From the NCBI RefSeq assembly GCF_046105845.1, contig NZ_CP151004.1: a stretch of 64,000 nt of DNA. One strand, written 5' to 3'. Of the stretch, positions 18,839 through 34,156 are shown piece by piece. The notes beneath the pieces were generated by a model, which was not told where the DNA came from, made no database searches, and saw nothing but the letters and a program-made list of their open reading frames with translations. The position numbers and the translations under genes are program-made. Within the stretch, counting starts at the first letter, position 1. The number at the start of each line of letters is the position of its first letter. The stretch comes from Escherichia coli. Lineage in GTDB: Bacteria; Pseudomonadota; Gammaproteobacteria; Enterobacterales; Enterobacteriaceae.

Positions 18839-19175
18839 CATGACTCCTTGCTCATCGCATGAAGACTCCGAGAGTGAACCCCGTTAGAAAGGGTCACACG
18901 CATGCCCCAATACAAAATTATTTGCTCGCCTCTATCGTTGCCATTTCATCAAAAGAGGAAAAGACAATGATAAAAAAGTTACAAATATGTTAATGAATAA
19001 ACCAAATTGATCCCGTAATTATATTACGCCGCAAAATCCTTACAATAAACAGGTTTTTATTGAGCAAATTTGCATTTTTCGACAGTGATCAATTTATAGC
19101 GAAATTGTCACGATCTCACCAATTTGATCTACGACAATTTATCGTGTTTTGCAGATTTTTTTCAAGAATTAAAAA

Positions 19176-19189
19176 TTGATTTATATCAA
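19176..19189. promoter_or_regulatory. FNR-type palindrome in the cydA upstream regulatory region
   Basis: Perfect TTGAT-N4-ATCAA (ttgatttatatcaa) about 340 bp upstream of the cydA ATG; cydAB is FNR/ArcA-controlled in E. coli. Confidence 0.5.
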
Positions 19190-19643
19190 AACCAACCAAA
19201 TATGTTAATTATGTATAAACCATAGATCATTGGTGATTTTATTGTTAATTTATTGTGAAATATTTATGCAACACAATTATTACAATGAAAAGGTATAGAT
19301 AAAAAACCAGTGTTTTATTTAACAGAACCGCCTTATCCACTTTTTATAATACCAATTGATTAGATTAGCCAATTTGTTGCTATTTTACATAACATATTTT
19401 TATCAAAGTTAATTGATTGTTGCCTTTATGAGCACCGGCCGTAAGCCCGTTATGTTATTGTTTCATTAGTAATAATCACTTAAATGTATCGATGAAACAG
19501 GTATGACTTAGCGGGAGTGATTGTTTCTGAGTGAACAGAGACCACTTTCGCCTGATAAATGAAAAATGAGCGATTTTTGCAAGTTAGTTTTTCTATAGCC
19601 GAGTACGCTCAGCGCCTCGCTTGATTACAATGAGGTTGCTGCT

Positions 19644-20588
19644 ATGAGTCCTGATAATATCAGTTCTGCTGTCAATCGCTTCTCAGGTTGGCCATCTAAT
19701 AATCCTCTAAAAACAGATAACGAATCAATGACATCACCCATGACTGTGCAGGTAATAAAGATGATTGCCGCCATCCTTGACCCACATCGGATAGTCGTTG
19801 GAATCGATACACTTTATACAACGCAGCGCGAAACATTTACCTCAGAGAGTCAACAGCTCATTGAATCAGCATTGCAAACACTTCATGTGATGAATTTAAA
19901 TAACCTGGAAACAAATCTCGATGAGGAAGGTCACTATCTGGCTTTTGGATATAACGTTGACACTCCTGACAGAATAACCGTTTCTGCTTATAATGAAAAA
20001 AAGCCTGGCTGCTATGGCCAATGTCTTTTAATACAGGATGACGAAACAGACTTATTTAACCTGATAAAAGTTAAAATTTTTGAAGCCAGGCATAATTATG
20101 TCGCTCAATTGATGAGCGATCCGGAATTTATGTTCAAATTTAGTTATAGCGCTCAACAAAATAGATTAGAACCTCATCTTCTGGTTCCCACTTATTTCCC
20201 TCTAAAAACAAACGAACCGGTTACGCAAGAGGATGTACTGTTACTTTATCGTTTCTTTAAAATGGATGGTGATTTTAATATATTAACATCAGATGAATAC
20301 ATGAGTATCATGACACCTCTGATGAAGTGTGAGCGCAGCATCCACGACCACAACAGGTATGTGACGGGCAAAGATACCCTTCTTCTGGACTATCCTCCTT
20401 CTGGTAACCAGATATATTTCCATATTTTTCCTGACGAATCAGCAACACTAGTCCTTTATTTTTCAAACAATGACATTGAATGTTTCGTCTTTGAAAGAGA
20501 TATTCCGAGCCAGTATCGCTTTTTCAAAATGTTTACCAATCTGGCACTGGTTATTGATCAGTTAACCGATGCCAATCAAATACTTTAA
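19644..20588 (+). CDS. hypothetical protein, no recognisable family (orphan island gene A)
   Basis: 314-aa ORF with a GAGG RBS 7 nt upstream; markedly AT-rich (24 G+C in the first 60 nt); Ser/Asn/Pro-rich N-terminus. Confidence 0.7.
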   Translation: MSPDNISSAVNRFSGWPSNNPLKTDNESMTSPMTVQVIKMIAAILDPHRIVVGIDTLYTTQRETFTSESQQLIESALQTLHVMNLNNLETNLDEEGHYLAFGYNVDTPDRITVSAYNEKKPGCYGQCLLIQDDETDLFNLIKVKIFEARHNYVAQLMSDPEFMFKFSYSAQQNRLEPHLLVPTYFPLKTNEPVTQEDVLLLYRFFKMDGDFNILTSDEYMSIMTPLMKCERSIHDHNRYVTGKDTLLLDYPPSGNQIYFHIFPDESATLVLYFSNNDIECFVFERDIPSQYRFFKMFTNLALVIDQLTDANQIL

Positions 20589-20668
20589 TTTTTATATATT
20601 CTCTGTGGCAAATATTGCTAAACAATGCCCGGGGATTAATTTTTATTACTCACGGAAAGATTTAAATA

Positions 20669-21091
20669 ATGATCCCATCTCAAATCTCTTTCAACACCCT
20701 TCCTGTCAATGCAACATACGCTTCAGAGACAACAGTTGACACACAAAAATTCTCTGACATCCTCTACTCAGCGGGGTGTTCCCTAAAGGATCTGGCTTAT
20801 CTGAGCAGATGTCTGGCATCAATACATCCGACTATCGCCAAAAACATTTATGAAACAGAAAATCTCAGCGATCAAAAATTACTACATATTGATTGCCGTA
20901 GTACAAATGAAATCAAGATAAATATCTTTTTTGGTCAACAACGAGAAGGATTAATTGAAATTAGTTCTGACACAGTCATTTTTTCGATACTGTCTTCATT
21001 GATTGACTCCACCATTTCTAAATTTCAACACCAAAACCCCGTTAACGGTTCTGTAAATCCTGGCCTATTGTATGAGGATTATACTGATTAA
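20669..21091 (+). CDS. hypothetical small acidic protein (orphan island gene B)
   Basis: 140-aa ORF 80 bp downstream of gene A on the same strand; AT-rich; about 16 Asp/Glu versus 9 Lys/Arg by count. Confidence 0.65.
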   Translation: MIPSQISFNTLPVNATYASETTVDTQKFSDILYSAGCSLKDLAYLSRCLASIHPTIAKNIYETENLSDQKLLHIDCRSTNEIKINIFFGQQREGLIEISSDTVIFSILSSLIDSTISKFQHQNPVNGSVNPGLLYEDYTD

Positions 21092-21638
21092 ATCCCTCCT
21101 GTCGCGAAAAATGGCCTGCGTTATTGCCAGACGTAATAAAACTTTTGATTAACGTTTCTCGTACTGGTAGCACTTTCATGTACTTTTCTTTTTTACGAAA
21201 AATCAAAAGAGCTAACAAAGGTCATAATTCGCATGAATCATTAATTATTTGTTATTTTCAACATTATTTTTACATTAAGCAGAGATGAATTGCAGTGAAA
21301 TTCGACTTAACTTTTACGAAATGCATTTACTCATGGCTAAAGCCACGTCACAAAAATGCAAATTAGAAGTTGATCACAATTATCTCAATACATCAAATCA
21401 AGTTAATTTTAAAAATTTAACATTCATGACATTAGTTGACATAACACACTGAATTAAAATGAGAATTTGGAAACACACTTTAAACAATCATTTCCCGAAA
21501 GACATTTTGAAAATAGATCAATTGCAACATTACGGTCAGATAAAGACACTCCTGTGATATTAAACCTGTGCCGTTATGAACGGCCATAAATACGGCGTGT
21601 GTAACTTATTTTACTCTCTGTCTTACAAAGGATTACCC

Positions 21639-22088
21639 ATGAAGAAAGCAACACTTGTGATTGGCGTTATTGGCGCGGACTGCCATGCAGTAGGCAATAA
21701 AGTTCTGGACCGCGTTTTTAGCAACCATGGCTTCAGAGTCATTAATCTGGGCGTAATGGTCAGCCAGGACGAATATATTGATGCTGCCATTGAAACTGGC
21801 GCTGACGCGATTGTCGTCTCCTCTATCTATGGGCATGGCGATATCGACTGTCTGGGCATGCGCGAACGCTGCATCGAGCGTGGGCTGGGTAACATCCTGC
21901 TCTATGTGGGCGGTAACCTGGTGGTCGGAAAACATGACTTCGCTGACGTGGAAACCAAATTCAAAGAGATGGGATTTGATCGCGTCTTTTCCCCAAGTCA
22001 TGACTTAGAAGATGTTTGTCAGCTGATGGCCCACGATATCAACCAACGTCATGACGTTGATACTCGTATTCTTGAAGAGGCAATCTGA
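21639..22088 (+). CDS. glmS: glutamate mutase (methylaspartate mutase) small S subunit, cobalamin-binding; clostridial GlmS/MutS, not glucosamine-6-P synthase
   Basis: 149 aa from [24 protein letters not shown] with AAGGA RBS; DxHxxG B12-binding motif; strong similarity to Clostridium MutS/GlmS as I recall it; ORF-track start at 21576 rejected. Confidence 0.9.
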
Positions 22089-23476
22089 TGCAAATCGTCT
22101 CTGTCGATATTGGATCGACGTGGACCAAAGCAGCCCTCTTCGCCCGGGAGGGGGACGCGTTAACGTTGGTTAACCACGTACTGACCCCAACCACCACCCA
22201 TCATCTGGCGAAGGGGTTTTTCTCCAGCCTGAACCTGGTGTTAAACGTAGATAATGCCCTCCCCCTGTTTAACAGCGGTGAGGTTGCATTGAAGTATTCC
22301 TCCTCTGCCAAAGGTGGGCTGGCGGTTGCCGCAATGGGATTGGTGCCTTCTATCACCCTGGAAACCGCGAAAGTAACCGCTCACTCTGCGGGTGCTAAAA
22401 TTGCGCAATATTACGCCTACAAGCTGAACCGTCGTGATATCCAGGCACTGGAAGAAACGCAGCCCGATATTCTCTTGTTCACCGGCGGCACCGATGGCGG
22501 AGAAGAAAGCTACGGACTGAATAACGCCCGTGTGTTGGCAGAATCCAAACTCGACTGCGCCATTATTTATGCCGGAAACCGGGATATTCAGGACGAGGTG
22601 CAGGAGATCCTCGGGCATAAAGACCTGACCATCGTCGACAACGTTCTGCCCGATCTTGACCATCCGAACCCTTTAGCTGCACGCCAGGCTATCTGCGACA
22701 TATTCCTTAAACGCATCGTTAAAGGGAAAGGGCTGGATGTCGTTGTTGATAAAACAGGCGAAGAACCAATGCCGACACCGTGGACAGTCTTTGAACTGGT
22801 TAAGGCAATCAGTAATGTCGATCACAGCTGGAAAGAGTTCATGCTGATCGACATGGGTGGCGCAACCACCGATGTCTATTCCGCCTGTGCCAACACGCTC
22901 TCGCCCGACACCGTTTTACACGGCGTACCGGAACCCTTCGTGAAACGGACGGTGGAAGGCGATCTGGGAATGCGCGTCTCGGCAATGGTGGTTGGTGAAA
23001 GTGCGAAAGAGTTAGTCAATGTGAATTTTGCTCAGCAACCCGCACAGCTGGACGCTTTTTATCATTACCTCCGTCATCTAGTCGCTCATCCCGACTACTT
23101 ACCCGCGAATGCAGAAGAAAAATATTTCGATACCGTCCTGGCCGGACTGTGTGTGGGTTATGCCACCGAAAGACATGCGGGCACCAAAAAAGAGGTCTGC
23201 ACCTGCGTCGGCAATGTCGATTTACAGATGGGACGTGACCTGACAACCGTGCGTAAAGTCGTCGGATCCGGCGGATGGCTCTCGCGTGCCAGTCAGTTCG
23301 ATATGCATCACTGGTTGAAATACCGCGAGTTAAACGACGACGGTAAACGCATTCTCTTACCGACCGAATTTGAATATTACCGCGATTCCCGGGGGCTATT
23401 ACCACTGCTGGCAAACGTCGCCAGAGTCGATCCGCTGGCCGCCGCGCGCACCAGTATTCAATGCTTAACCCTATAA
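22088..23476 (+). CDS. glmL: glutamate mutase-associated protein GlmL/MutL (putative mutase reactivase/chaperone)
   Basis: 462 aa; start overlaps the glmS stop (TGATG); N-terminus IVSVDIGSTWTKAALF is an ASKHA-like ATPase fold motif; conserved position between the S and E subunit genes. Confidence 0.85.
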   Translation: MQIVSVDIGSTWTKAALFAREGDALTLVNHVLTPTTTHHLAKGFFSSLNLVLNVDNALPLFNSGEVALKYSSSAKGGLAVAAMGLVPSITLETAKVTAHSAGAKIAQYYAYKLNRRDIQALEETQPDILLFTGGTDGGEESYGLNNARVLAESKLDCAIIYAGNRDIQDEVQEILGHKDLTIVDNVLPDLDHPNPLAARQAICDIFLKRIVKGKGLDVVVDKTGEEPMPTPWTVFELVKAISNVDHSWKEFMLIDMGGATTDVYSACANTLSPDTVLHGVPEPFVKRTVEGDLGMRVSAMVVGESAKELVNVNFAQQPAQLDAFYHYLRHLVAHPDYLPANAEEKYFDTVLAGLCVGYATERHAGTKKEVCTCVGNVDLQMGRDLTTVRKVVGSGGWLSRASQFDMHHWLKYRELNDDGKRILLPTEFEYYRDSRGLLPLLANVARVDPLAAARTSIQCLTL

Positions 23477-23494
23477 CAATTAAGGCTGCAATCA

Positions 23495-24940
23495 ATGGAA
23501 CTTCGAAATAAGAAATTAACCCATGACGAATTCATGACCGAGCGGCAACAGGTACTGAAAACCTGGGAAACCGGCAAGGATGTTGAAAACTTTGAAGATA
23601 GCGTTAAATACCAACAAACCATTCCTGAGCATAAACGCTTCTCTCTTGCGCTGTTGAAAGCAGACAAGGAAGGTAAAACCCTTAGCCAACCGCGCGCAGG
23701 TGTGGCGCTGATGGACGAACACATCGAACTACTGAAAACACTACAAGAAGAGTGCGATCTGCTGCCGAGCACTATCGATGCATATACCCGTCTGAATCGG
23801 TACGAAGAAGCGGCTGTAGGGATTAAAAAATCCATCGAAGCCGGAACCTCTAAACTGAACGGTTTGCCGGTAGTTAACCATGGCGTCGCAGCTTGCCGTC
23901 GCCTCACCGAAGCCCTGCAAAAACCGCTACAGATCCGCCACGGCACGCCAGATGCGCGTCTGCTGGCTGAAATCTCGATGGCCAGCGGCTTTACCAGTTA
24001 TGAAGGCGGCGGCATTTCCTACAATATTCCGTATGCCAAGCGCGTAACGCTGGAAAAATCGATCCGCGACTGGCAGTACTGCGACCGTTTAATGGGGATG
24101 TATGAAGAACACGGGATCCGCATCAACCGCGAACCGTTTGGCCCACTAACGGGTACGCTGATCCCGCCGTTTATCTCGCACTCTATCGCGATAATCGAAG
24201 GATTGCTGGCACTGGAACAGGGTGTGAAATCTATCACCGTTGGTTATGGCCAAGTCGGCAGCCTGACGCAGGATGTTGCGGCGATCCAGTCTCTGCGTGA
24301 ACTTGCACACGAATATTTTCAGAGCTATGGCTATACCGACTATGAATTGAGTACCGTGTTTCACCAGTGGATGGGCGGCTTTCCGGAAGACGAATCGAAA
24401 GCGTTCGCTATTATCTCCTGGGGCGCAGCCGTCGCGGGGATGTCTGGTGCCACCAAAGTCATCACCAAAAGTCCGCACGAAGCCTGGGGAATCCCGACTG
24501 CCGCTGCCAACATTCAGGGGCTGAAAGCCTCCCGCCAGATGCTCAACATGGTCAATGAGCAGAAATTCCCGCCGTGCCCTGCGGTTGAACTGGAAATTGA
24601 ACTGATTAAGAGCGAGGTTCGCGCGGTACTGAATAAAGTGTTCGAACTGGGTAATGGTGATATTGCGCGCGGTACGGTGCTGGCATTTGAAGCGGGCGTA
24701 CTGGATGTGCCGTTTGCGCCAGCCGCCTGCAACGCGGGCAAAATTCTTCCGGTCCGTGACAACACCGGCGCGATACGCGTACTGGAAGCCGGAGCCGTTC
24801 CATTGCCAAAAGATATTCTCGACCTCCACCACGATTACGTTGCGGAACGCGCACGCTTTGAAGGACGCCAACCGACATTCCAGATGGTTGTAGATGACAT
24901 CAATGCTGTATCCCACAGTAAATTAATAGGAAGACCATAA
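23495..24940 (+). CDS. glmE: glutamate mutase (methylaspartate mutase) large E subunit
   Basis: 481 aa; long collinear similarity to Clostridium GlmE/MutE (MELRNKKLT...QPRAGVALMDEHIELL...HQWMGGFPEDESKAF...). Confidence 0.93.
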   Translation: MELRNKKLTHDEFMTERQQVLKTWETGKDVENFEDSVKYQQTIPEHKRFSLALLKADKEGKTLSQPRAGVALMDEHIELLKTLQEECDLLPSTIDAYTRLNRYEEAAVGIKKSIEAGTSKLNGLPVVNHGVAACRRLTEALQKPLQIRHGTPDARLLAEISMASGFTSYEGGGISYNIPYAKRVTLEKSIRDWQYCDRLMGMYEEHGIRINREPFGPLTGTLIPPFISHSIAIIEGLLALEQGVKSITVGYGQVGSLTQDVAAIQSLRELAHEYFQSYGYTDYELSTVFHQWMGGFPEDESKAFAIISWGAAVAGMSGATKVITKSPHEAWGIPTAAANIQGLKASRQMLNMVNEQKFPPCPAVELEIELIKSEVRAVLNKVFELGNGDIARGTVLAFEAGVLDVPFAPAACNAGKILPVRDNTGAIRVLEAGAVPLPKDILDLHHDYVAERARFEGRQPTFQMVVDDINAVSHSKLIGRP

Positions 24941-26181
24941 TGAAAATAAAACAGGCCCTGTTCACCGCTGGCTATTCCTCATTCTATTTCGATGACCAGC
25001 AGGCGATAAAAAACGGAGCGGGTCACGACGGCTTTTTTTATACCGGGGAGCCAGTAACACAGGGGTTTAACGCCGTACGTCAGGCCGGGGAGTGCGTATC
25101 GGTACAGTTGATTCTGGAAAACGGCGCGGTCGCCGTAGGTGACTGTGCTGCCGTACAGTATTCCGGGGCAGGTGGTCGCGATCCACTGTTCCTCGCGGAG
25201 CACTTTATTCCGTTCCTCAACGACCATATCAAGCCATTACTGGTAGGCCGCGATGTGGATGCTTTCCTGCCGAATGCCCGTTTCTTCGACAAATTGCGTA
25301 TTGACGGCAACTTGCTGCATACCGCCGTGCGCTACGGATTATCACAGGCGCTGCTTGATGCTACCGCGCTGGCAACCGGCCGTCTGAAAACTGAAGTGGT
25401 CTGTGATGAATGGCAGTTGCCACGCGTGGCGGAATCCATTCCATTATTTGGTCAGAGCGGCGACGATCGATATATCGCCGTCGATAAGATGATCCTTAAG
25501 GGCATCGACGTGCTGCCCCATGCGCTGATTAATAACGTCGAAGAGAAGCTGGGCTTTAAAGGTGAAAAACTGCGCGAATATGTCCGCTGGCTGTCGGATC
25601 GTATTCTGAGCAAGCGCACCAGCGCACGCTACCACCCTACCCTGCACATCGATGTATACGGCACTATCGGTCTGATCTTCGATATGGATCCGCTTCGCTG
25701 TGCGCAATACATCGCCAGCCTGGAAAAAGAAGCGCAAGGCCTGCCGCTCTACATTGAAGGGCCGGTCGATGCCGGTAACAAGCCCGATCAAATTCGCCTG
25801 CTGTCCGCGATTACCAAAGAGCTGACGCGCCTCGGTTCCGGCGTGAAAATTGTGGCCGATGAATGGTGTAACACCTACCAGGATATTGTTGATTTCACTG
25901 ATGCCGCCAGTTGCCACATGGTGCAAATCAAAACCCCGGATCTGGGCAGTATTCACAACATCGTCGATGCGGTTCTTTACTGCAACAGCCACAGCATGGA
26001 AGCGTACCAGGGCGGCACCTGCAATGAAACTGATGTCAGTGCCCGCACCTGTGTCCACGTCGCCCTTGCCGCTCGCCCTATGCGTATGCTGGTAAAGCCA
26101 GGGATGGGCTTTGACGAAGGCCTCGATATCGTCTTCAACGAAATGAATCGTACTATCGCGCTGTTGCAGGCTAAGGATTAA
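24940..26181 (+). CDS. mal: 3-methylaspartate ammonia-lyase (beta-methylaspartase)
   Basis: 413 aa; start overlaps the glmE stop; strong similarity to Clostridium MAL (AGHDGF.YTG, CAAVQYSGAGGRDPLFLA, ADEWCNT, HMVQIKTPDLG); enolase-superfamily fold. Confidence 0.93.
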   Translation: MKIKQALFTAGYSSFYFDDQQAIKNGAGHDGFFYTGEPVTQGFNAVRQAGECVSVQLILENGAVAVGDCAAVQYSGAGGRDPLFLAEHFIPFLNDHIKPLLVGRDVDAFLPNARFFDKLRIDGNLLHTAVRYGLSQALLDATALATGRLKTEVVCDEWQLPRVAESIPLFGQSGDDRYIAVDKMILKGIDVLPHALINNVEEKLGFKGEKLREYVRWLSDRILSKRTSARYHPTLHIDVYGTIGLIFDMDPLRCAQYIASLEKEAQGLPLYIEGPVDAGNKPDQIRLLSAITKELTRLGSGVKIVADEWCNTYQDIVDFTDAASCHMVQIKTPDLGSIHNIVDAVLYCNSHSMEAYQGGTCNETDVSARTCVHVALAARPMRMLVKPGMGFDEGLDIVFNEMNRTIALLQAKD

Positions 26182-26184
26182 CAA

Positions 26185-27555
26185 ATGGCTCGTTCTTTTA
26201 AAGTCTTATCGCCAACGGCAATCCTCGGGTATGGATTCCCGGAAGAGAGCTTCCGCAAAGCGATGGCAGAATCGCCCGATCTGATCGCCGTTGATGCAGG
26301 CTCTTCCGATCCTGGCCCCCACTACCTCGGAGCGGGCAAACCGTTTACCGATCGCGCAGGGGTCAAGCGCGATCTGCGCTATATGATCACCGCAGGCGTG
26401 CAAAATAATATACCGGTGGTGATCGGAACGGCCGGCGGTTCTGGTGCCGCTCCACACCTGGAGTGGTGCCGAGAAATAATTCATGAGATTGCCCGGGAAG
26501 AGCACCTCTCGTTCTCGATGGCGCTGATCCCGGCAGACGTTGACAAAGCCATCGTCCACCAGGCGCTGGATAACGGCAAAATCACGGCGCTGGATTTTGT
26601 CCCGCCGTTAACCCACGACGCGATTGACGAAAGTACGTATATCGTCGCGCAAATGGGCATCGAACCCTTCCAGCAGGCGCTGAAAGAAGGCGCGCAAGTG
26701 GTGCTGGGCGGGCGCGCTTACGACCCGGCCTGCTTTGCTGCGCTACCGATCATGCAAGGCTTTGATGAAGGTCTGGCGCTGCATTGTGGGAAAATCCTTG
26801 AATGCGCGGCAATCGCCGCAACGCCCGGCTCAGGCTCTGACTGTGCGATGGGCATCATTGATGACAACGGCTTTACGCTGAAGACATTTAATCCGAAGCG
26901 TAAATTTACCGAAACGTCAGCAGCTGCACACACACTGTATGAGAAATCCGATCCCTACTTCCTGCCTGGACCTGGCGGCGTGTTGAACCTGAAAGACTGC
27001 ACATTTAAAGCGGTCAATGACGGCGAAGTGTACGTCAGCGGTTCTAAGCATGAAGAAACGCCGTATGCCCTGAAACTGGAAGGTGCACGACGGGTGGGCT
27101 TCCGCTGTCTGACCATCGCAGGAACGCGCGACCCGATCATGATCGCCGGGATCGATAAAATCATCGATGAAGTCAAAACCAGCGTTTCGCGTAACCTGTC
27201 GCTCGACGATGACAGCATTCACATCAATTTCCACCTGTACGGCAAAAACGGGGTGATGGGCGACCATGAACCGATGCAAACTGCCGGGCATGAGCTGGGG
27301 ATTGTCCTAGATGTAGTTGCGCCGACCCAGGAAATTGCCAACAGCGTTTGCTCGCTGGTGCGCTCTACTATGCTGCACTACGGCTATGAAAACCGCATCG
27401 CTACCGCAGGCAACCTGGCGTTCCCGTTCTCCCCTTCTGATATCCAGGGCGGGCCGGTATACGAATTTTCCATATATCACCTGATTGAAGCCAACGACGC
27501 TCTGCGTTTTGATTTCCATATTGAACAGGTGACGCCAGAAGGAGTTCAGGCATGA
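26185..27555 (+). CDS. uncharacterised protein, possibly DUF1446/AtuA-like family (assignment from memory, unverified)
   Basis: 456-aa ORF 3 nt after the mal stop in the same operon; Gly-rich motif GTAGGSGAAP; no enzymatic family recognised with certainty. Confidence 0.75.
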   Translation: MARSFKVLSPTAILGYGFPEESFRKAMAESPDLIAVDAGSSDPGPHYLGAGKPFTDRAGVKRDLRYMITAGVQNNIPVVIGTAGGSGAAPHLEWCREIIHEIAREEHLSFSMALIPADVDKAIVHQALDNGKITALDFVPPLTHDAIDESTYIVAQMGIEPFQQALKEGAQVVLGGRAYDPACFAALPIMQGFDEGLALHCGKILECAAIAATPGSGSDCAMGIIDDNGFTLKTFNPKRKFTETSAAAHTLYEKSDPYFLPGPGGVLNLKDCTFKAVNDGEVYVSGSKHEETPYALKLEGARRVGFRCLTIAGTRDPIMIAGIDKIIDEVKTSVSRNLSLDDDSIHINFHLYGKNGVMGDHEPMQTAGHELGIVLDVVAPTQEIANSVCSLVRSTMLHYGYENRIATAGNLAFPFSPSDIQGGPVYEFSIYHLIEANDALRFDFHIEQVTPEGVQA

Positions 27556-27869
27556 AACAGTCAATTGTCTCACTGGCGCAAGTCATTCGTTCGAAAAATG
27601 CCGGACCTTACGAACTGGTTTTAGATATTTTATTTAAAACCAAAGAAAACTATGAGCGAGTTAAATCATCAGGGCAATTAACCCCAGAACTGATCGCGCG
27701 CTTATATCATGTTGAACCTGACTTTATTCATCGTATTGTCTGGTTTGATCCTTCTAACGCAGTAAAAATCGTCATGCCACGAGATATTATCTCCGGGAAT
27801 GTAGGTGACAATGATGTCTATGGTGCACAGCAACATGCACCTTTATTAAATATGAGTTTCGATTTGTAA
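27552..27869 (+). CDS. small uncharacterised protein, possibly DUF4387-like partner of the preceding gene
   Basis: 105-aa ORF whose ATG overlaps the upstream stop (ATGA), indicating translational coupling. Confidence 0.7.
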   Translation: MKQSIVSLAQVIRSKNAGPYELVLDILFKTKENYERVKSSGQLTPELIARLYHVEPDFIHRIVWFDPSNAVKIVMPRDIISGNVGDNDVYGAQQHAPLLNMSFDL

Positions 27870-28029
27870 AAATCCGAATACTTTTAGCCAACTGACATCC
27901 CGTCACTTATTGCAGTTCAACACTTCAGCTATTTGTAAGGTTGTAATAGCAGGTAGATGCCTGAATCTCTATTCAGGCATCTACTTCTCCTGATTCTGAT
28001 TTATCGCCGTGCACCTGATGGAGGAAAAA

Positions 28030-29310
28030 ATGAAGAAAATAAGTTTAACCACGATGATTCTTTTGGCGCTGGTACTTGGAATGATTATCGGCGTAGTGCT
28101 CAATAACACTGCTTCACCGGAAACCGCAAAACTCTATGCGCAAGAAATATCGATATTCACGACGATTTTCTTACGACTGATAAAAATGATTATCGCTCCG
28201 TTAGTGGTCTCTACCCTGGTGGTAGGTATAGCTAAAATGGGCGATGCCAAAGCCCTTGGTCGTATTTTTTCTAAAACACTCTTTTTATTTATTTGCGCCT
28301 CATTGCTGTCAATTGCCTTAGGCTTGATAACAGTAAATTTCTTCATGCCAGGCACAGGAATTAATTTTGTTGCACACGGAGTCGAAACCACCGGAGTGGT
28401 CGCGTCAGAACCCTTTACGCTAAAAGTATTTATTTCGCATGCTTTCCCCACCAGCATTGTCGATGCCATGGCGCACAATGAAATTTTGCAAATCGTGGTG
28501 TTCTCAATTTTCCTCGGCTGTAGCCTGACGGCGATTGGCGAGAAAGGCAGCGCCATCGTTCACGCCTTAGATTCGCTGGCACATGCCATGTTAAAGCTCA
28601 CTGGCTACGTCATGCTCTTCGCTCCCCTGACCGTATTCGCTGCTATTTCAGCATTGATTGCTGAACGAGGACTGGCAGTTATGGTGAGCGCCGGGATCTT
28701 TATGGGTGAATTTTATTTCACCATGTTATTACTTTGGGTGCTGCTTATCGGTCTGGCCATCGTTTATGTCGGCCCCTGCATCAGACGCCTGACCCGCGCC
28801 CTTTCGGAACCCGCCCTGCTGGCATTTACCACATCCAGTTCTGAAGCGGCTTTTCCGGGAACGCTTGAAAAACTGGAGCAATTTGGCGTTTCCCCCAAAA
28901 TTGCCAGCTTTGTCTTACCCATTGGCTACTCATTTAATCTCGTTGGATCAATGGCCTACTGCTCCTTCGCCACAGTTTTCATCGCCCAGGCCTGCAATAT
29001 CCATTTATCCATCGGTGAGCAAATCACCATGCTGTTGATCCTGATGTTGACCTCGAAAGGAATGGCTGGCGTACCACGCGCCTCAATGGTGGTTATCGCC
29101 GCCACGCTCAACCAGTTCAATATTCCGGAAGCGGGGCTGATCTTGCTGATGGGCGTTGATCCGTTCCTTGATATGGGGCGTTCCGCGACAAACGTCATGA
29201 GCAACGCAATGGGCGCTGCGATGGTGAGTCGGTGGGAAGGCGAACATTTCGGCGAGGGCTGTCGGGGTAAAGCATTAAAACCCAATGAATCGAACGTTGC
29301 TCTGCCCTGA
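28030..29310 (+). CDS. dicarboxylate/amino acid:cation symporter (GltP/DctA family), probable glutamate or C4/C5-dicarboxylate importer
   Basis: 426 aa from MKKISLTTMILLALVLGMIIG with GGAGG RBS 6 nt upstream; multi-TM profile typical of the DAACS family; ORF-track GTG start at 28009 rejected. Confidence 0.85.
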   Translation: MKKISLTTMILLALVLGMIIGVVLNNTASPETAKLYAQEISIFTTIFLRLIKMIIAPLVVSTLVVGIAKMGDAKALGRIFSKTLFLFICASLLSIALGLITVNFFMPGTGINFVAHGVETTGVVASEPFTLKVFISHAFPTSIVDAMAHNEILQIVVFSIFLGCSLTAIGEKGSAIVHALDSLAHAMLKLTGYVMLFAPLTVFAAISALIAERGLAVMVSAGIFMGEFYFTMLLLWVLLIGLAIVYVGPCIRRLTRALSEPALLAFTTSSSEAAFPGTLEKLEQFGVSPKIASFVLPIGYSFNLVGSMAYCSFATVFIAQACNIHLSIGEQITMLLILMLTSKGMAGVPRASMVVIAATLNQFNIPEAGLILLMGVDPFLDMGRSATNVMSNAMGAAMVSRWEGEHFGEGCRGKALKPNESNVALP

Positions 29311-29417
29311 GGGGGATCTTAAGCAATCAGAAGCCAATGACTACGCATTTTTATAAGCCGGATCATGAAGTTAGACGGCAATTAAGTAACACTAACGTTT
29401 AAGGTGAAAAGTGAAAT

Positions 29418-31070
29418 ATGTCAAAACCATTTATCTGGCAAGAACCGTTTCTACAAAATAAAGACGGTACAGAATATACATTAATTAGCGATCAGCATAT
29501 TACAGTAACGGAATTAGACGGCGAAGAAGTGATAAAAATCGCTCCTGAAGCATTAACGCTGCTTGCCCGGCAGGCATTTTATGAAGCCTCTTTTTTCTTA
29601 CGTTCCGCTCATTTGCAACAGGTCGCCAGCATTCTTAACGATCCGCAGGCCAGTAGTAATGATAAATACGTTGCGTTGCAGTTATTACGTAATGCTGAAG
29701 TCTCAGCAAAAGGGGTATTACCCAACTGTCAGGATACCGGCACCGCAACTATTGTTGCCAGTAAAGGGCAACAGATATGGACGGGAGGTAACGACGCTGA
29801 AGCCTTAAGCAAAGGCATTTACAGTACTTTCCAGGAAAATAATCTGCGCTTTTCACAAAATGCGCCGCTGGATATGTATACCGAAGTCAATACGCAAACC
29901 AATCTCCCGGCGCAGATTGATATCAGCGCTGTCGCTGGTAATGAGTACCATTTTCTCTGTGTTAATAAAGGGGGCGGCTCCGCCAATAAAGCCGCGCTTT
30001 ATCAGGAAACCAAATCCCTATTGCAACCAGAAAAACTGACCGCATTTTTAATCGAAAAAATGAAATCGCTGGGCACCGCTGCCTGCCCGCCTTACCACAT
30101 CGCCTTTGCCGTCGGAGGGCTTTCAGCCGATCAAACCTTAAAAGTTGCCAAGCTGGCCTCAACGAAATATTACGACAATTTGCCCACCAGCGGAAACGAG
30201 CAGGGACAAGCATTCCGTGATATTGAGCTGGAAAAAGTGTTGCTCGAGGCCAGTCAGCAATTTGGTATTGGTGCGCAATTTGGGGGTAAATATTTCGCTC
30301 ATGATATTCGCGTCATTCGTCTGCCGCGTCACGGTGGCTCTTGCCCGATAGCTATGGCGCTCTCCTGTTCTGCCGATCGCAATATCAAAGCAAAAATTAA
30401 CAAGCACGGTATCTGGCTGGAAAAACTCGAACACAATCCGGGGCAATATATTCCAGCCTCACTGCGGGAAGAAAACCACGCGCAACATGTACAACTGGAT
30501 CTAAACCGTCCGTTGCGTGACGTGATGCAGGATCTCGCCAGATTACCGGTAGGCACCCGCGTGTCGTTAAATGGTCCCATCGTAGTGGCGCGCGATATCG
30601 CCCACGCCAAAATAAAAGCGCGGCTGGATAGCGGCGAACCGATGCCGGATTACCTGAAGCATCATATTGTCTATTACGCTGGCCCGGCGAAAACACCTGA
30701 TAACATGGCCTGCGGTTCACTGGGTCCAACCACGGGCGGTCGAATGGACGGTTATGTCGATACCTTCCAGGCGGCTGGCGGCAGCCTGGTGATGTTATCG
30801 AAAGGTAACCGCAGCCAGCAGGTCACCGATGCCTGTCACAAACATGGCGGCTTCAATCTGGGAAGTATTGGCGGTGCAGCTGCGTTACTGGCGCAAGAAT
30901 ATGTCAAAAGTCTGCGTTGCCTGGAATACCCGGAGCTGGGTATGGAAGCGGTGTGGATGATGGAAGTGGAAAATCTGCCCGCATTCATTCTGGTAGATGA
31001 TAAAGGCAATAATTTCTTTAGTCAGTTTGAACAGCAACACCGCTGCGCCAGTTGCCCTGCGGGACATTAA
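29418..31070 (+). CDS. fumD: class I (Fe-S, FumA/FumB-type) fumarate hydratase paralog, probable mesaconase/fumarase
   Basis: 550 aa, collinear with E. coli FumA/FumB throughout (PFIWQEPF..., CQDTGTA, GGGSANK, CPPYHIA, HGGSCP) but clearly divergent; sits in the methylaspartate operon. Confidence 0.9.
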
Positions 31071-31079
31071 GGAAAATGA

Positions 31080-31682
31080 ATGGAAGCGCGAATTTCAACT
31101 GAACGGCATGTGCAGCGCCAGCAGAAATTGAAGGAACAGGTCGATACGCGCGTCGCGGCGGCGATAGAGAAAAAAGGGATCTTGATTGTTTTCACCGGCA
31201 ACGGCAAAGGGAAATCCACTGCCGCGTTTGGTACTGTAACGCGCGCGGTGGGTCATGGCAAAACGGTGGGGGTTGCGCAGTACATCAAGGGGCAATGGGA
31301 CAACGGCGAATACAACCTTCTCCAGCCGCTGGGGGTTGAGTTTCATATTATGGGAACCGGTTTTACCTGGGAGACACAGAACCGGCAAGCGGATATCGAC
31401 GCGGCGAAAGAGGTCTGGTCGGAAAGCAAACGGATGCTGGCTGACAAGCGTTACGACTTAGTGGTGCTTGATGAGCTGACCTATATGCTGGCTTACCATT
31501 ATCTGGATACCGAAGAAGTGATCGCTTCTCTGCAAAACCGCCCGGCACAACAAAGTGTCATTGTCACCGGACGCGGTTGCCACAGTCAGATATTAAAAAT
31601 GGCGGATACGGTCAGCGAAATCCGCCCCGTCAAACATGCTTTTGATAACGGCATTCAGGCCCAGCCGGGTATCGACTGGTAA
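31080..31682 (+). CDS. cob(I)yrinic acid a,c-diamide / cob(I)alamin adenosyltransferase (BtuR/CobA/CobO family)
   Basis: 200 aa; GNGKGKSTAAFG P-loop and collinear similarity to E. coli BtuR; AAGGAAA RBS. Confidence 0.9.
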   Translation: MEARISTERHVQRQQKLKEQVDTRVAAAIEKKGILIVFTGNGKGKSTAAFGTVTRAVGHGKTVGVAQYIKGQWDNGEYNLLQPLGVEFHIMGTGFTWETQNRQADIDAAKEVWSESKRMLADKRYDLVVLDELTYMLAYHYLDTEEVIASLQNRPAQQSVIVTGRGCHSQILKMADTVSEIRPVKHAFDNGIQAQPGIDW

Positions 31683-31685
31683 TAA

Positions 31686-31717
31686 CTGCGCCTGGCATCC
31701 CGCCAGGCGCAGGTTTT
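31686..31717. terminator. bidirectional hairpin terminator between the operon end and the convergent LysR gene
   Basis: ctgcgcctgg-catcccg-ccaggcgcag stem-loop followed by tttt; overlaps the LysR stop codon on the other strand. Confidence 0.55.
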
Positions 31718-32621
31718 ACATCTCCTGCGGTACAACCGATTTCGCCAGCAACCATTCACGAAATTGCTGCAAGTGCGGTGAGTCAGACTTCTCTTCCTGC
31801 CACGTCATAATAAAACGATTACCGGTACGAATAGGCACATCACAGGGGATCACCATATCGCCACTATCCAAATCATGTTGAATAGCGAAACGTGGTAACA
31901 GCGCCACGCCGAGATTCGAGCGCACGGCGGCAATCAGCATTGAAAGCAAATCGAAACGTGGTCCGTTGTTGACCAGCGGACTGCTAACGCCAGATAAGGC
32001 AAACCACTCTTCCCAGCCAGTAATACGGGTACTTTGATGCAGAAGTGGTAACTCTGTAAGCAGTTCTGCCACTGACAGTTTTTGATCGGACATTGTAAGC
32101 AAACTGCCGCTGCATACCGGCAAAATCTCCTCTTCAAAGAGATATTCTACTTCCGCCCAGGGCGCGCAAAAATTTTCGCGCATAATGACAGCATCGTACT
32201 CCCGATTAAGAAAATCGCCGTTATTAGCTAAAGAGTGAATATTAACAATAATATCGGAATGTAACTTTGTGAATTCATGTAAATTTGGGATTAACCAGTG
32301 GGTACTAAACGTAGGATTCACGGCAAGTTCAATAACCTTAACCGTAGGCTGCCAGGTCATAATGGTATTGGTATCGCGTTCCAGCTTATTTAATGTTTCT
32401 TTTACTATCCCCAGGTAATACTTCCCTGCATCATTAAGAAAAATACGTTTTTTAGAGTGTGAAAATAACGGAGTATGTAAAAATTCCTCCAGCGCACTCA
32501 CTTGTCTGAATACTGCACTTTGGGTCAACGCTAACTCCTCTGCCGCTCTGGTATAACTTTCATGACGTGCGACGACCTCAAAAGTCACCAGCAGCTCCGT
32601 TTTAGGTATTTTTCCTCGCAT
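31716..32621 (-). CDS. LysR-family transcriptional regulator
   Basis: 301 aa; N-terminal wHTH (ELLVTFEVVARHESYTRAAEELALTQSAVFRQVSALEEFL) plus substrate-binding domain; convergent with the operon. Confidence 0.9.
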   Translation of the reverse strand: MRGKIPKTELLVTFEVVARHESYTRAAEELALTQSAVFRQVSALEEFLHTPLFSHSKKRIFLNDAGKYYLGIVKETLNKLERDTNTIMTWQPTVKVIELAVNPTFSTHWLIPNLHEFTKLHSDIIVNIHSLANNGDFLNREYDAVIMRENFCAPWAEVEYLFEEEILPVCSGSLLTMSDQKLSVAELLTELPLLHQSTRITGWEEWFALSGVSSPLVNNGPRFDLLSMLIAAVRSNLGVALLPRFAIQHDLDSGDMVIPCDVPIRTGNRFIMTWQEEKSDSPHLQQFREWLLAKSVVPQEM

Positions 32622-33185
32622 AATGCCGTCCCTTAAAAATAGTTTAAACCATCAAAAATACATTACTTATTACGAAGTAATGGTAACCAAAGCAGCAATA
32701 AATAATTTATAAGAATCATGATTGACATTTATAACCCAGTAAGCCTGGCGTGACAAATATCTTAATCAGATAATAATAATCCGAAAAGCACAGCGCCTTT
32801 CGAATTATCCGGAATCACATTAAGTGAAAATTATTAAATTGATATCATTTATCATATCTGTGGATATTATGATAAACAATCAACAAAGATTTTATTTTTG
32901 ATTTATAGCATATCCCTCTAAGAATTTTTGCGATGCTGCAATATCCGGGGTAAAGACCCGATCCTGGCTGACAAATGGCACGACTTGACGATAAGCGGTG
33001 AACATCGCTTTTGTTGATTTACTTAACGCTACGGTCAAACGCTGGGAAGCCAGTGCATCAGGTAACGATTCGAAATTCGCCGTCGTTCTTATTCGTGGCT
33101 TGCGGTCGGTTGCGGCAATCCACAGTGGCTGTGGTCATGCAGTCAAGCCAGCGGTCAGATTTCGACCGTGGTTAACATTTAAGGC

Positions 33186-33286
33186 ATAAAAAAGGCCATC
33201 ATATGATGGCCAACCATGTCGAAACCGACAGCCCTTCGCCATTCCTGTAGAGGGAAGCGGCGAGGGCTATTTCTTATTACAGATAT
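33186..33286 (-). ncRNA. sdhX: probable SdhX (RybD) sRNA from the sucD 3' UTR with intrinsic terminator
   Basis: About 100 nt between the sucD stop and a ggccatcat/atgatggcc hairpin followed by a U-run on the minus strand; positional equivalence to the K-12 sucD 3'-UTR sRNA; sequence identity not verified. Confidence 0.45.
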
Positions 33287-34156
33287 TTATTTCAGAACAG
33301 TTTTCAGTGCTTCACCGATATCCGCCAGGCTGCGAACGGTTTTCACGCCTGCGGCTTCCAGAGCAGCGAATTTCTCATCCGCAGTCCCTTTCCCACCGGC
33401 AATGATCGCACCCGCGTGGCCCATACGTTTGCCTTTCGGCGCAGTCACACCAGCGATGTAACCCACAACAGGCTTGGTAACGTGCTCTTTGATGTACGCA
33501 GCCGCTTCTTCTTCAGCGCTACCGCCGATCTCACCGATCATCACGATCGCTTCGGTCTGCGGATCTTTTTCGAACATTTCGAGGATGTCGATAAAGTTAG
33601 AGCCAGGGATCGGGTCGCCGCCGATACCGACACAGGTCGACTGACCGAAACCGTAATCCGTGGTCTGTTTAACCGCTTCATAGGTCAGTGTACCGGAACG
33701 GGAAACGATACCCACTTTACCCGGTTTGTGAATGTGACCCGGCTGGATACCGATTTTGCATTCACCCGGAGTGATTACGCCCGGACAGTTCGGGCCGATC
33801 ATACGAACGCCTGCTTCATCCAGTTTCACTTTCACGGTCAGCATATCCAGCGTCGGGATGCCTTCAGTGATGGTGATAATCAGTTTGATGCCTGCATCGA
33901 TGGCTTCCAGAATGGAGTCTTTGCAGAACGGTGCTGGTACGTAGATAACAGAAGCGGTAGCGCCAGTAGCAGCAACAGCTTCACGAACGGTGTTGAACAC
34001 CGGCAGGCCGAGGTGGGTGGTGCCGCCTTTACCTGGGGTTACGCCGCCAACCATTTTAGTGCCGTATGCAATAGCCTGTTCTGAGTGGAAAGTCCCCTGG
34101 CTACCGGTAAAGCCCTGGCAGATAACCTTGGTGTTTTTATCAATTAAAATGGACAT
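33287..34156 (-). CDS. sucD: succinyl-CoA synthetase alpha subunit
   Basis: 289 aa; matches E. coli SucD. Confidence 0.97.

Follow-up and report, generated by a model that had tools for sequence, protein, structure and literature searches.

A DAACS-family carrier linked to the methylaspartate pathway island of Escherichia coli, a probable proton-coupled glutamate importer

Within a 64,000-nucleotide stretch of Escherichia coli DNA (the window; RefSeq contig NZ_CP151004.1), a gene for a carrier of the DAACS family lies among the genes of an island for glutamate breakdown, and we consider it probable, at roughly two chances in three, that its product is an H+-coupled glutamate importer that feeds the island pathway. 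Family membership, the residues at the binding and coupling sites and the conserved linkage of the gene to its neighbours were computed directly. From these we infer the substrate, the direction of transport, the coupling to protons and co-expression with the enzyme genes.

In the proposed role, a proton-coupled carrier of the DAACS/SLC1 fold would bring in L-glutamate, and probably also aspartate and other closely related acidic amino acids. The imported glutamate would then be converted to 3-methylaspartate by GlmSE with GlmL, using AdoCbl from CobO, and further to mesaconate by Mal, to (S)-citramalate by FumD, and to pyruvate and acetate by CmlAB. That the first enzyme of the pathway takes L-glutamate counts for this reading, while the report that glutamate neither supported nor stimulated anaerobic growth of O157:H7 (Kronen and Berg, PMC4682846) counts against it. 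No transport assay for the carrier was found in the searchable literature. The idea of a pathway-linked glutamate carrier is itself already in print at annotation level: Fig 5 of Kronen and Berg (2015; PMC4682846) labels the gene 'GltP, glutamate transporter' and shows it with FumD, CobA and a LysR regulator as neighbours, and with GlsA in other species.

The carrier gene and the island around it

The carrier gene is contained in a plus-strand open reading frame at 28009-29310, and its start codon is the RefSeq start of the O157:H7 protein WP_000724200.1 ('dicarboxylate/amino acid:cation symporter'); reading frame and RefSeq start thus both agree with the extent of 28030-29310 given in the original prediction. 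An identical protein sequence is already public, under generic names every time (database look-up). The Sakai tag of the gene was inferred as ECs0758; the literature searched made no mention of ECs0758-0764, and ECs0750-0754 are sdh/suc genes.

Judged from its sequence, the product is a true membrane transporter of the glutamate/dicarboxylate family (DAACS/SDF, TC 2.A.23). The Pfam SDF profile (PF00375) is matched from end to end (profile positions 1-387 of 387; E = 4.9e-102; 342 bits, cut-off 27.9), residues 8-404 are collinear with residues 14-417 of GltPh across the TM segments, HP1 and HP2 (E ~1e-54), and AncInt (PDB 9BGZ), a reconstructed aspartate transporter, aligns at E = 1e-68, all of which bears out the DAACS assignment first proposed. 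The accompanying claim that E. coli has further carriers of this kind also stands, K-12 having GltP, DctA, SstT and TcyP. The gene is under purifying selection, since dN/dS against its orthologues is 0.04-0.09, values that are approximate because dS is saturated; the two Morganella copies (see below) give 0.09 against each other, again with saturated dS and hence approximate. Its GC3 (0.55) is in line with the neighbouring genes. A foreign origin of the carrier, considered from the low GC at ~27.5-28.5 kb, was rejected, the dip being that of cmlB and the spacer.

The genes on the plus strand run in the order glmS-glmL-glmE-mal-cmlA-cmlB, carrier, fumD-cobO (Table 1). The island sits between cydA and sucD, where K-12 has mngR-mngA-mngB, and is found in 1123 of 5426 complete E. 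coli genomes (~21%). Its AtuA/DUF1446 and DUF4387 proteins are essentially identical to the cmlA and cmlB proteins of PDB 9ERQ/9EVF, and FumD has been characterised as a mesaconase, mesaconate being its preferred substrate (PMC4682846). Because cmlAB are the citramalate lyase and FumD the mesaconase, the island encodes the full route from glutamate through methylaspartate, mesaconate and citramalate to pyruvate and acetate.

Table 1. Genes, sequence elements and carrier residues of the island, in window positions; residue equivalences are to GltPh.
Feature	Position	Strand	Basis or remark
glmS, methylaspartate (glutamate) mutase subunit S	21636..22088	+	NCBIfam NF002612, 252 bits; RefSeq
glmL, mutase accessory protein	22088..23476	+	Profile matches, RefSeq
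glmE, methylaspartate mutase subunit E	23495..24940	+	TIGR01503, 864 bits
mal, methylaspartate ammonia-lyase	24940..26181	+	TIGR01502, 544 bits
cmlA, citramalate lyase subunit A (annotated AtuA family/DUF1446)	26185..27555	+	PDB 9ERQ_A, 966 bits, residues 1-456; Pfam AtuA
cmlB, citramalate lyase subunit B (DUF4387)	27552..27869	+	PDB 9ERQ_B, 193.5 bits; Pfam DUF4387
Spacer cmlB-carrier, 160 nt	27870..28029	+	Sole long gap in the glmS-to-carrier block
Perfect 14-bp inverted repeat, 4-nt loop	27953..27984	+	In spacer; no clean U tract
Shine-Dalgarno-like GGAGGA	28020..28025	+	4 nt 5' of carrier ATG 28030; sequence inspection
DAACS/SDF-family carrier gene, 426 aa	28030..29310	+	ORF, Pfam SDF, RefSeq CDS with identical start, GltPh and AncInt alignments
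Carrier A90 = GltPh T92			
Carrier S91 = GltPh S93			
Carrier E272 (HP1) = GltPh S279	28843..28845	+	Proposed protonation site of H+-coupled homologues, PMC12668577
TM7 motif N303-L304-V305-G306-S307 = GltPh N310-M311-D312-G313-T314	28936..28950	+	Asp replaced by Val
R350, HP2 tip = GltPh G357	29077..29079	+	Marks the carrier's clade
TM8 motif D381-M-G-R384-S-A-T-N388-V-M-S391-N392 = GltPh D394, R397, N401, G404, D405	29170..29205	+	
fumD, class I fumarase/mesaconase	29418..31070	+	NF011921, 1282 bits; characterised in PMC4682846
cobO, cob(I)alamin adenosyltransferase	31080..31682	+	Profile matches, RefSeq
11-bp GC-rich hairpin after cobO (11 pairs, 9 G-C)	31686..31712	+	Best-scoring terminator-like site of the cluster
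LysR-family regulator, convergent with the operon	31716..32621	-	Profile matches, RefSeq

Linkage to the pathway genes across enterobacteria

An orthologue scan with one genome per species yielded 55 enterobacterial carrier loci (72-100% identity) in at least 15 genera, and the neighbourhoods of these loci were typed by tblastn with the island proteins. The carrier adjoins pathway genes in 54 of the 55, which upholds the tie to the mutase and lyase operon that had been claimed for E. coli. Most copies (49 of 55) lie directly 3' of glmS-glmL-glmE-mal(-cmlAB); another five are the second of two Morganella copies, lying ~36 kb away from the first and directly 5' of fumD-cobO, and the remaining one is an orphan carrier in Trabulsiella. 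Across genera, the identity of the carrier drops in parallel with that of the adjoining enzymes. In Yersinia, Hafnia and Budvicia, whose loci are without fumD, the genes for the mutase, the lyase and CmlAB still have the carrier with them, so the carrier is tied more tightly to the upper pathway than fumD is.

None of the homologues with 56% identity or below (from Chitinophaga, Zymomonas and various MAGs) had pathway genes nearby, which indicates that the linkage of carrier and pathway is an enterobacterial acquisition. Likewise, no mutase or lyase gene was found near six more distant relatives (P0121, P0125, P0126, P0128, P0148 and P0157), and their neighbourhoods did not point clearly to a substrate; P0148 has peptidase, aminotransferase and amino-acid permease genes around it.

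In 29 of the 55 loci a glutaminase gene (PF04960, E ~1e-105) follows directly after the carrier on the same strand. The linked glutaminase has an N-terminal extension of 45-66 residues with a hydrophobic, signal-like segment (e.g. MNKAMIGVSLFTFSVLFSTATLA/QP), a putative signal peptide. A glutaminase so placed fits the conversion of glutamine to glutamate in the periplasm followed by uptake, and carrier and enzyme would form a coherent unit for glutamine/glutamate use. E. coli is without the adjacent glutaminase gene, which counts against the glutamate-importer reading.

Family position, binding-site residues and the choice of substrate

Among the K-12 paralogues, the carrier is 40% identical to GltP, 34% to DctA, 25% to TcyP and 20% to SstT. 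It scores 301 bits against the NCBIfam GltP equivalog model (NF008440) and 313 bits against that for DctA (NF002461), below the respective cut-offs of 638 and 513. A neighbour-joining tree of 103 sequences was rooted on SstT and bootstrapped 200 times, with the four E. coli paralogues and the motif classes as reference points. In this tree GltP and DctA each group with their own motif class, and the carrier falls in a large third clade, the features of which are an Arg at the HP2 tip (GVPRAS), an Asp at position 394 and the H+ signature. Of the 200 bootstraps, 97.5% separate the carrier plus its near relatives from GltP, DctA, SstT and TcyP, and 79.5% separate a near-complete Arg-357 clade from these four. 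No experimentally characterised member or known substrate was placed in the Arg-357 clade, the reference points being the E. coli paralogues.

By score and by tree, then, the carrier is not an orthologue of GltP or of DctA and belongs to a separate Arg-357 clade. The 'GltP-family paralog' of the original prediction keeps its family, though it is no GltP orthologue, given the shortfall in bits and the separate clade; the phylogenetic check proposed with it places the carrier outside the clades of carriers for unrelated substrates (SstT, TcyP).

Residues of the carrier were numbered by GltPh equivalence from the alignment. D394 binds the amino group of the substrate and R397 its side-chain carboxylate, and together they set specificity for acidic amino acids as against dicarboxylates and neutral amino acids (PMC12668577). 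In the carrier, D381 corresponds to the amino-group ligand D394, R384 to R397 for the side-chain carboxylate and N388 to N401 for the alpha-carboxylate, and S307 in TM7 to T314; the TM8 ligands are thus kept (DMGRSATN), and HP1 is serine-rich (TTSSSE). E. coli DctA and eight DctA-type representatives have Ser at 394 and GVTGSG in HP2, whereas the carrier has Asp and GVPRAS. Since Asp is kept where DctA has Ser, an acidic amino acid is favoured and mesaconate disfavoured. The H+-coupled members of the family have [A/L/I/V/M/F]92, L311 and N405, with E279 as putative protonation site (PMC12668577), and this signature is complete in the carrier (A90, L304, N392 and E272 at positions 92, 311, 405 and 279), in which the Asn of H+ carriers stands in place of GltPh D405. 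Of the three substrates first offered, glutamate or a close amino-acid analogue is favoured over mesaconate because of Asp 394 and the signal-bearing glutaminase in 29 of the 55 loci; glutamate thus gains and mesaconate loses ground.

The NMD motif of the carrier is NLVGS and not NLDGS, the conserved TM7 Asp being replaced by Val. D312 belongs to the Na+ site (PMC12668577), and GltP and DctA keep the Asp. Every one of the 54 full-length orthologues, the two Morganella copies and the Trabulsiella orphan among them, has both D312V and G404S, and all full-length enterobacterial orthologues share identical NLVGSMAYCSFA, GVPRAS and DMGRSATNVMSN motifs. Among the nearest relatives that lie apart from pathway clusters (45-56% identity), which have NLDGS and NVxGN, neither replacement occurs, so the two set the pathway-linked clade apart from those relatives. 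D312V is unusual rather than unique, since a non-acidic residue at 312 recurs elsewhere in the Arg-357 clade without a mutase link and SstT has Ala (NMAGA), a motif which further indicates that the SDF family tolerates loss of the NMD Asp. Given Val at 312, coupling or specificity of the carrier may differ from those of GltP.

How far such a difference might go bears on the alternatives to glutamate import. Unlikely, in our estimate, is a functionally shifted clade in which Val and Ser-404 would fill the former cation pocket, with altered energisation or a tuning to 3-methylaspartate as the result; it could, for example, allow a cheap uncoupled or exchange-type entry of glutamate suited to low-energy fermentation. 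Slightly more doubtful again is a carrier specialised for L-threo-3-methylaspartate, or one of broad range for Glu, Asp and methylaspartate, in which D312V (with G404S) would reshape the pocket beside residues 311 and 314 for a branched substrate. The two replacements are present throughout the orthologues and absent from the nearest non-pathway relatives, and the kept amino-acid ligands would be needed by methylaspartate too, but a non-acidic 312 arises repeatedly in the Arg-357 clade without the mutase link, and the adjacent glutaminase indicates glutamate. Moreover, a cell that took up methylaspartate would have no need of the three mutase genes or of cobO, yet these are always linked. No external source of methylaspartate is known, which also counts against this substrate. 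On its side stands earlier work that found methylaspartase activity to be widespread in enterobacteria (as related by Kronen and Berg, PMC4682846).

That the carrier moves a C5 dicarboxylate of the pathway, with mesaconate or citramalate entering for FumD and CmlAB or an intermediate leaving, we regard as very unlikely. The DctA model does give the nominally best NCBIfam score (313 against 301 bits for GltP), the gene lies beside fumD in E. coli, the second Morganella copy stands directly 5' of fumD-cobO and away from the mutase genes, and FumD prefers mesaconate (PMC4682846). However, residue 394, the published discriminator against dicarboxylates (PMC12668577), is Asp in the carrier, while all DctA-type sequences examined have Ser together with GVTGSG in HP2; the binding-site motifs are identical in both Morganella copies; and the carrier of Yersinia, Hafnia and Budvicia stays with mutase and lyase at a locus that has no fumD.

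Transcription, significance and comparison with known systems

From glmS to cmlB, neighbouring genes either overlap or leave gaps of no more than 22 nt, and a spacer 5' of the carrier is present in all species examined (64-362 nt). The inverted repeat in the E. coli spacer has a local folding energy of ~-28 kcal/mol; it may serve as a partial terminator, as a processing site or to stabilise the mRNA. The equivalent spacer of 17 of 17 other species checked also contains a stable hairpin, though with another sequence; that of Yersinia, Hafnia and Budvicia has a T-rich tail and, beyond it, a long AT-rich stretch. Two other identities of the E. coli hairpin were rejected, that of a canonical terminator because it is without a U tract and that of a dispersed repeat because it has one copy per island-bearing genome. 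A consensus scan found no sigma-70-like plus-strand promoter in the E. coli spacer, and among the Rfam families, riboswitches included, none was matched 5' of the carrier or of glmS in a search of 19000-33500 (E up to 1).

Co-transcription of the carrier with the enzyme genes is plausible, and the simplest reading of the arrangement would be a single transcript within which the hairpin acts to attenuate or to stabilise. The least credible alternative makes the carrier a general acidic-amino-acid transporter that rides in the island as a passenger with its own transcription signals and no dedicated role, as the 160-nt spacer with its strong hairpin after otherwise closely packed genes, the T-rich tail and AT-rich stretch in Yersinia, Hafnia and Budvicia, and the orphan copy in Trabulsiella could suggest, but adjacency is kept in 54 of 55 loci from at least 15 genera, divergence parallels that of the neighbours, the clade-specific residues are invariant, the E. 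coli spacer is without a sigma-70-like promoter and the best-scoring terminator-like site comes after cobO. No conditions were found by Kronen and Berg (PMC4682846) in which O157:H7 expresses the cluster, and the literature searched held no expression data for its genes.

Beyond the published annotation, the present analysis adds that the carrier is not a GltP orthologue and belongs to a separate clade with the H+ signature, and that its residues favour an amino acid over mesaconate. It also adds the linkage in 54 of 55 loci, the clade-distinguishing D312V and the spacer hairpin in every species checked. Current understanding is otherwise unchanged, the gene and its presumed role having been published before as annotation. 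With CmlAB as the formerly missing citramalate lyase, O157:H7 and many other enterobacteria have in the island all steps of a B12-dependent conversion of glutamate to pyruvate and acetate, into which glutamate probably enters through the carrier. To know the carrier's substrate and coupling would help to explain when this pathway, silent so far, comes into use in the gut, and deletion or overexpression of the carrier offers a handle for finding the conditions that induce it. For transporter biology, a natural homologue with the H+ signature and without the NMD-motif Asp is a convenient test case.

Among known carriers, E. coli GltP (b4077), a glutamate/aspartate:H+ symporter, has its fold and length in common with the glutamate importer proposed here, at the 40% identity given above. 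Both have the TM8 pattern D-M-x-R-x-x-x-N-x-x-x-N (in GltP DMARTALNVVGN), Glu at 279 and Leu at 311. They differ in HP2, which is GVPGVS in GltP and GVPRAS in the carrier, and in TM7 (NLDGS against NLVGS), and gltP stands alone whereas the carrier gene lies within a catabolic island. E. coli DctA (b3528), a C4-dicarboxylate:H+ symporter of 34% identity, shares the family and the H+-type signature; it has Ser at 394 (SEAR), GVTGSG in HP2 and NLDGT in TM7, where the carrier keeps Asp 394. The closest solved structures are GltPh (1XFH) and AncInt (9BGZ), with which every substrate-ligand position aligns, while at their Na+-site residues T92, M311, D312 and D405 the carrier has A, L, V and N.

At the level of the pathway, the methylaspartate clusters of Clostridia (glm-mal-mesAB-citDEF) have the upper enzymes GlmS, GlmE, GlmL and Mal in common with the island. 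The clostridial clusters are described as having a two-subunit mesaconase and a citramalate lyase of the citrate-lyase type, and the legend of the figure names no carrier gene (Kronen and Berg, PMC4682846); in contrast, the enterobacterial cluster has FumD, CmlAB and the carrier.

Citramalate lyase genes of the island

Judged by their sequence matches, the products of cmlA and cmlB are essentially identical to the citramalate lyase subunits CmlA and CmlB in PDB entries 9ERQ and 9EVF (see table), and this match fills the citramalate step of the methylaspartate pathway that was left open by Kronen and Berg (2015). RefSeq naming of the two genes still lags behind. Base composition differs between them, with a GC of 0.39 (GC3 0.33) in cmlB and of 0.55 (GC3 0.62) in the overlapping cmlA, such that a sharp compositional break splits the genes of one two-subunit enzyme (CmlAB). 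The spacer between cmlB and the carrier gene contains a perfect 14-bp hairpin, and in 17 other enterobacterial species the same spacer also holds a stable hairpin, of unrelated sequence. Such a hairpin may set the enzyme-to-carrier ratio, either through internal attenuation or by stabilising the mRNA.

Features located in the window and at other carrier loci
Feature	Location	Annotation	Details
Hypothetical-protein ORF	19644-20588	O157:H7 annotation	314 aa; between cydA and glmS
Hypothetical-protein ORF	20669-21091	O157:H7 annotation	140 aa; between cydA and glmS
cmlA	26185-27555	'AtuA family protein'	9ERQ/9EVF CmlA, 966 bits
cmlB	27552-27869	'DUF4387'	9ERQ/9EVF CmlB, 193.5 bits
Spacer, cmlB to carrier	27870-28029
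Hairpin in spacer	27953-27984
Glutaminase	L018 11455-12591; L060 11418-12476		examples; plus 27 other loci
Morganella carrier copy 1	L045-L048, L050, L051		downstream of glmSLE-mal-cmlAB
Morganella carrier copy 2	L052, L054-L057		directly upstream of fumD-cobO

Carrier neighbourhoods across the enterobacterial loci

A glutaminase gene, whose product has a hydrophobic, putatively signal-like N-terminal extension, lies directly 3' of the carrier in 29 of the 55 enterobacterial loci; among these 55, the E. coli, Salmonella arizonae, Morganella and Yersinia loci have no carrier-adjacent glutaminase. Morganella possesses two carrier paralogues about 36 kb apart that share the same binding-site motifs (dN/dS of 0.09 between copies), its pathway cluster being in two halves with one carrier retained in each. 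In Trabulsiella odontotermitis (L040), the carrier is an orphan of 80% identity that keeps intact every clade-specific motif setting pathway-linked carriers apart from their nearest relatives, and no pathway genes were found within 10 kb of it. A 7.3-kb contig from a 'Collinsella sp.' MAG (L014, JAIJJM010000101.1) shows 98-100% protein identity to the E. coli island, and its placement under that name is probably a binning error.

The island site compared with K-12

Both hypothetical-protein ORFs between cydA and glmS are low in GC (0.37-0.38) and belong to the island. The sucD-cydA interval is occupied here by the island (about 19600-32700), versus mngR-mngA-mngB in K-12 (765153-771457 in the compared region, L094), a replacement at a chromosomal site common to both.
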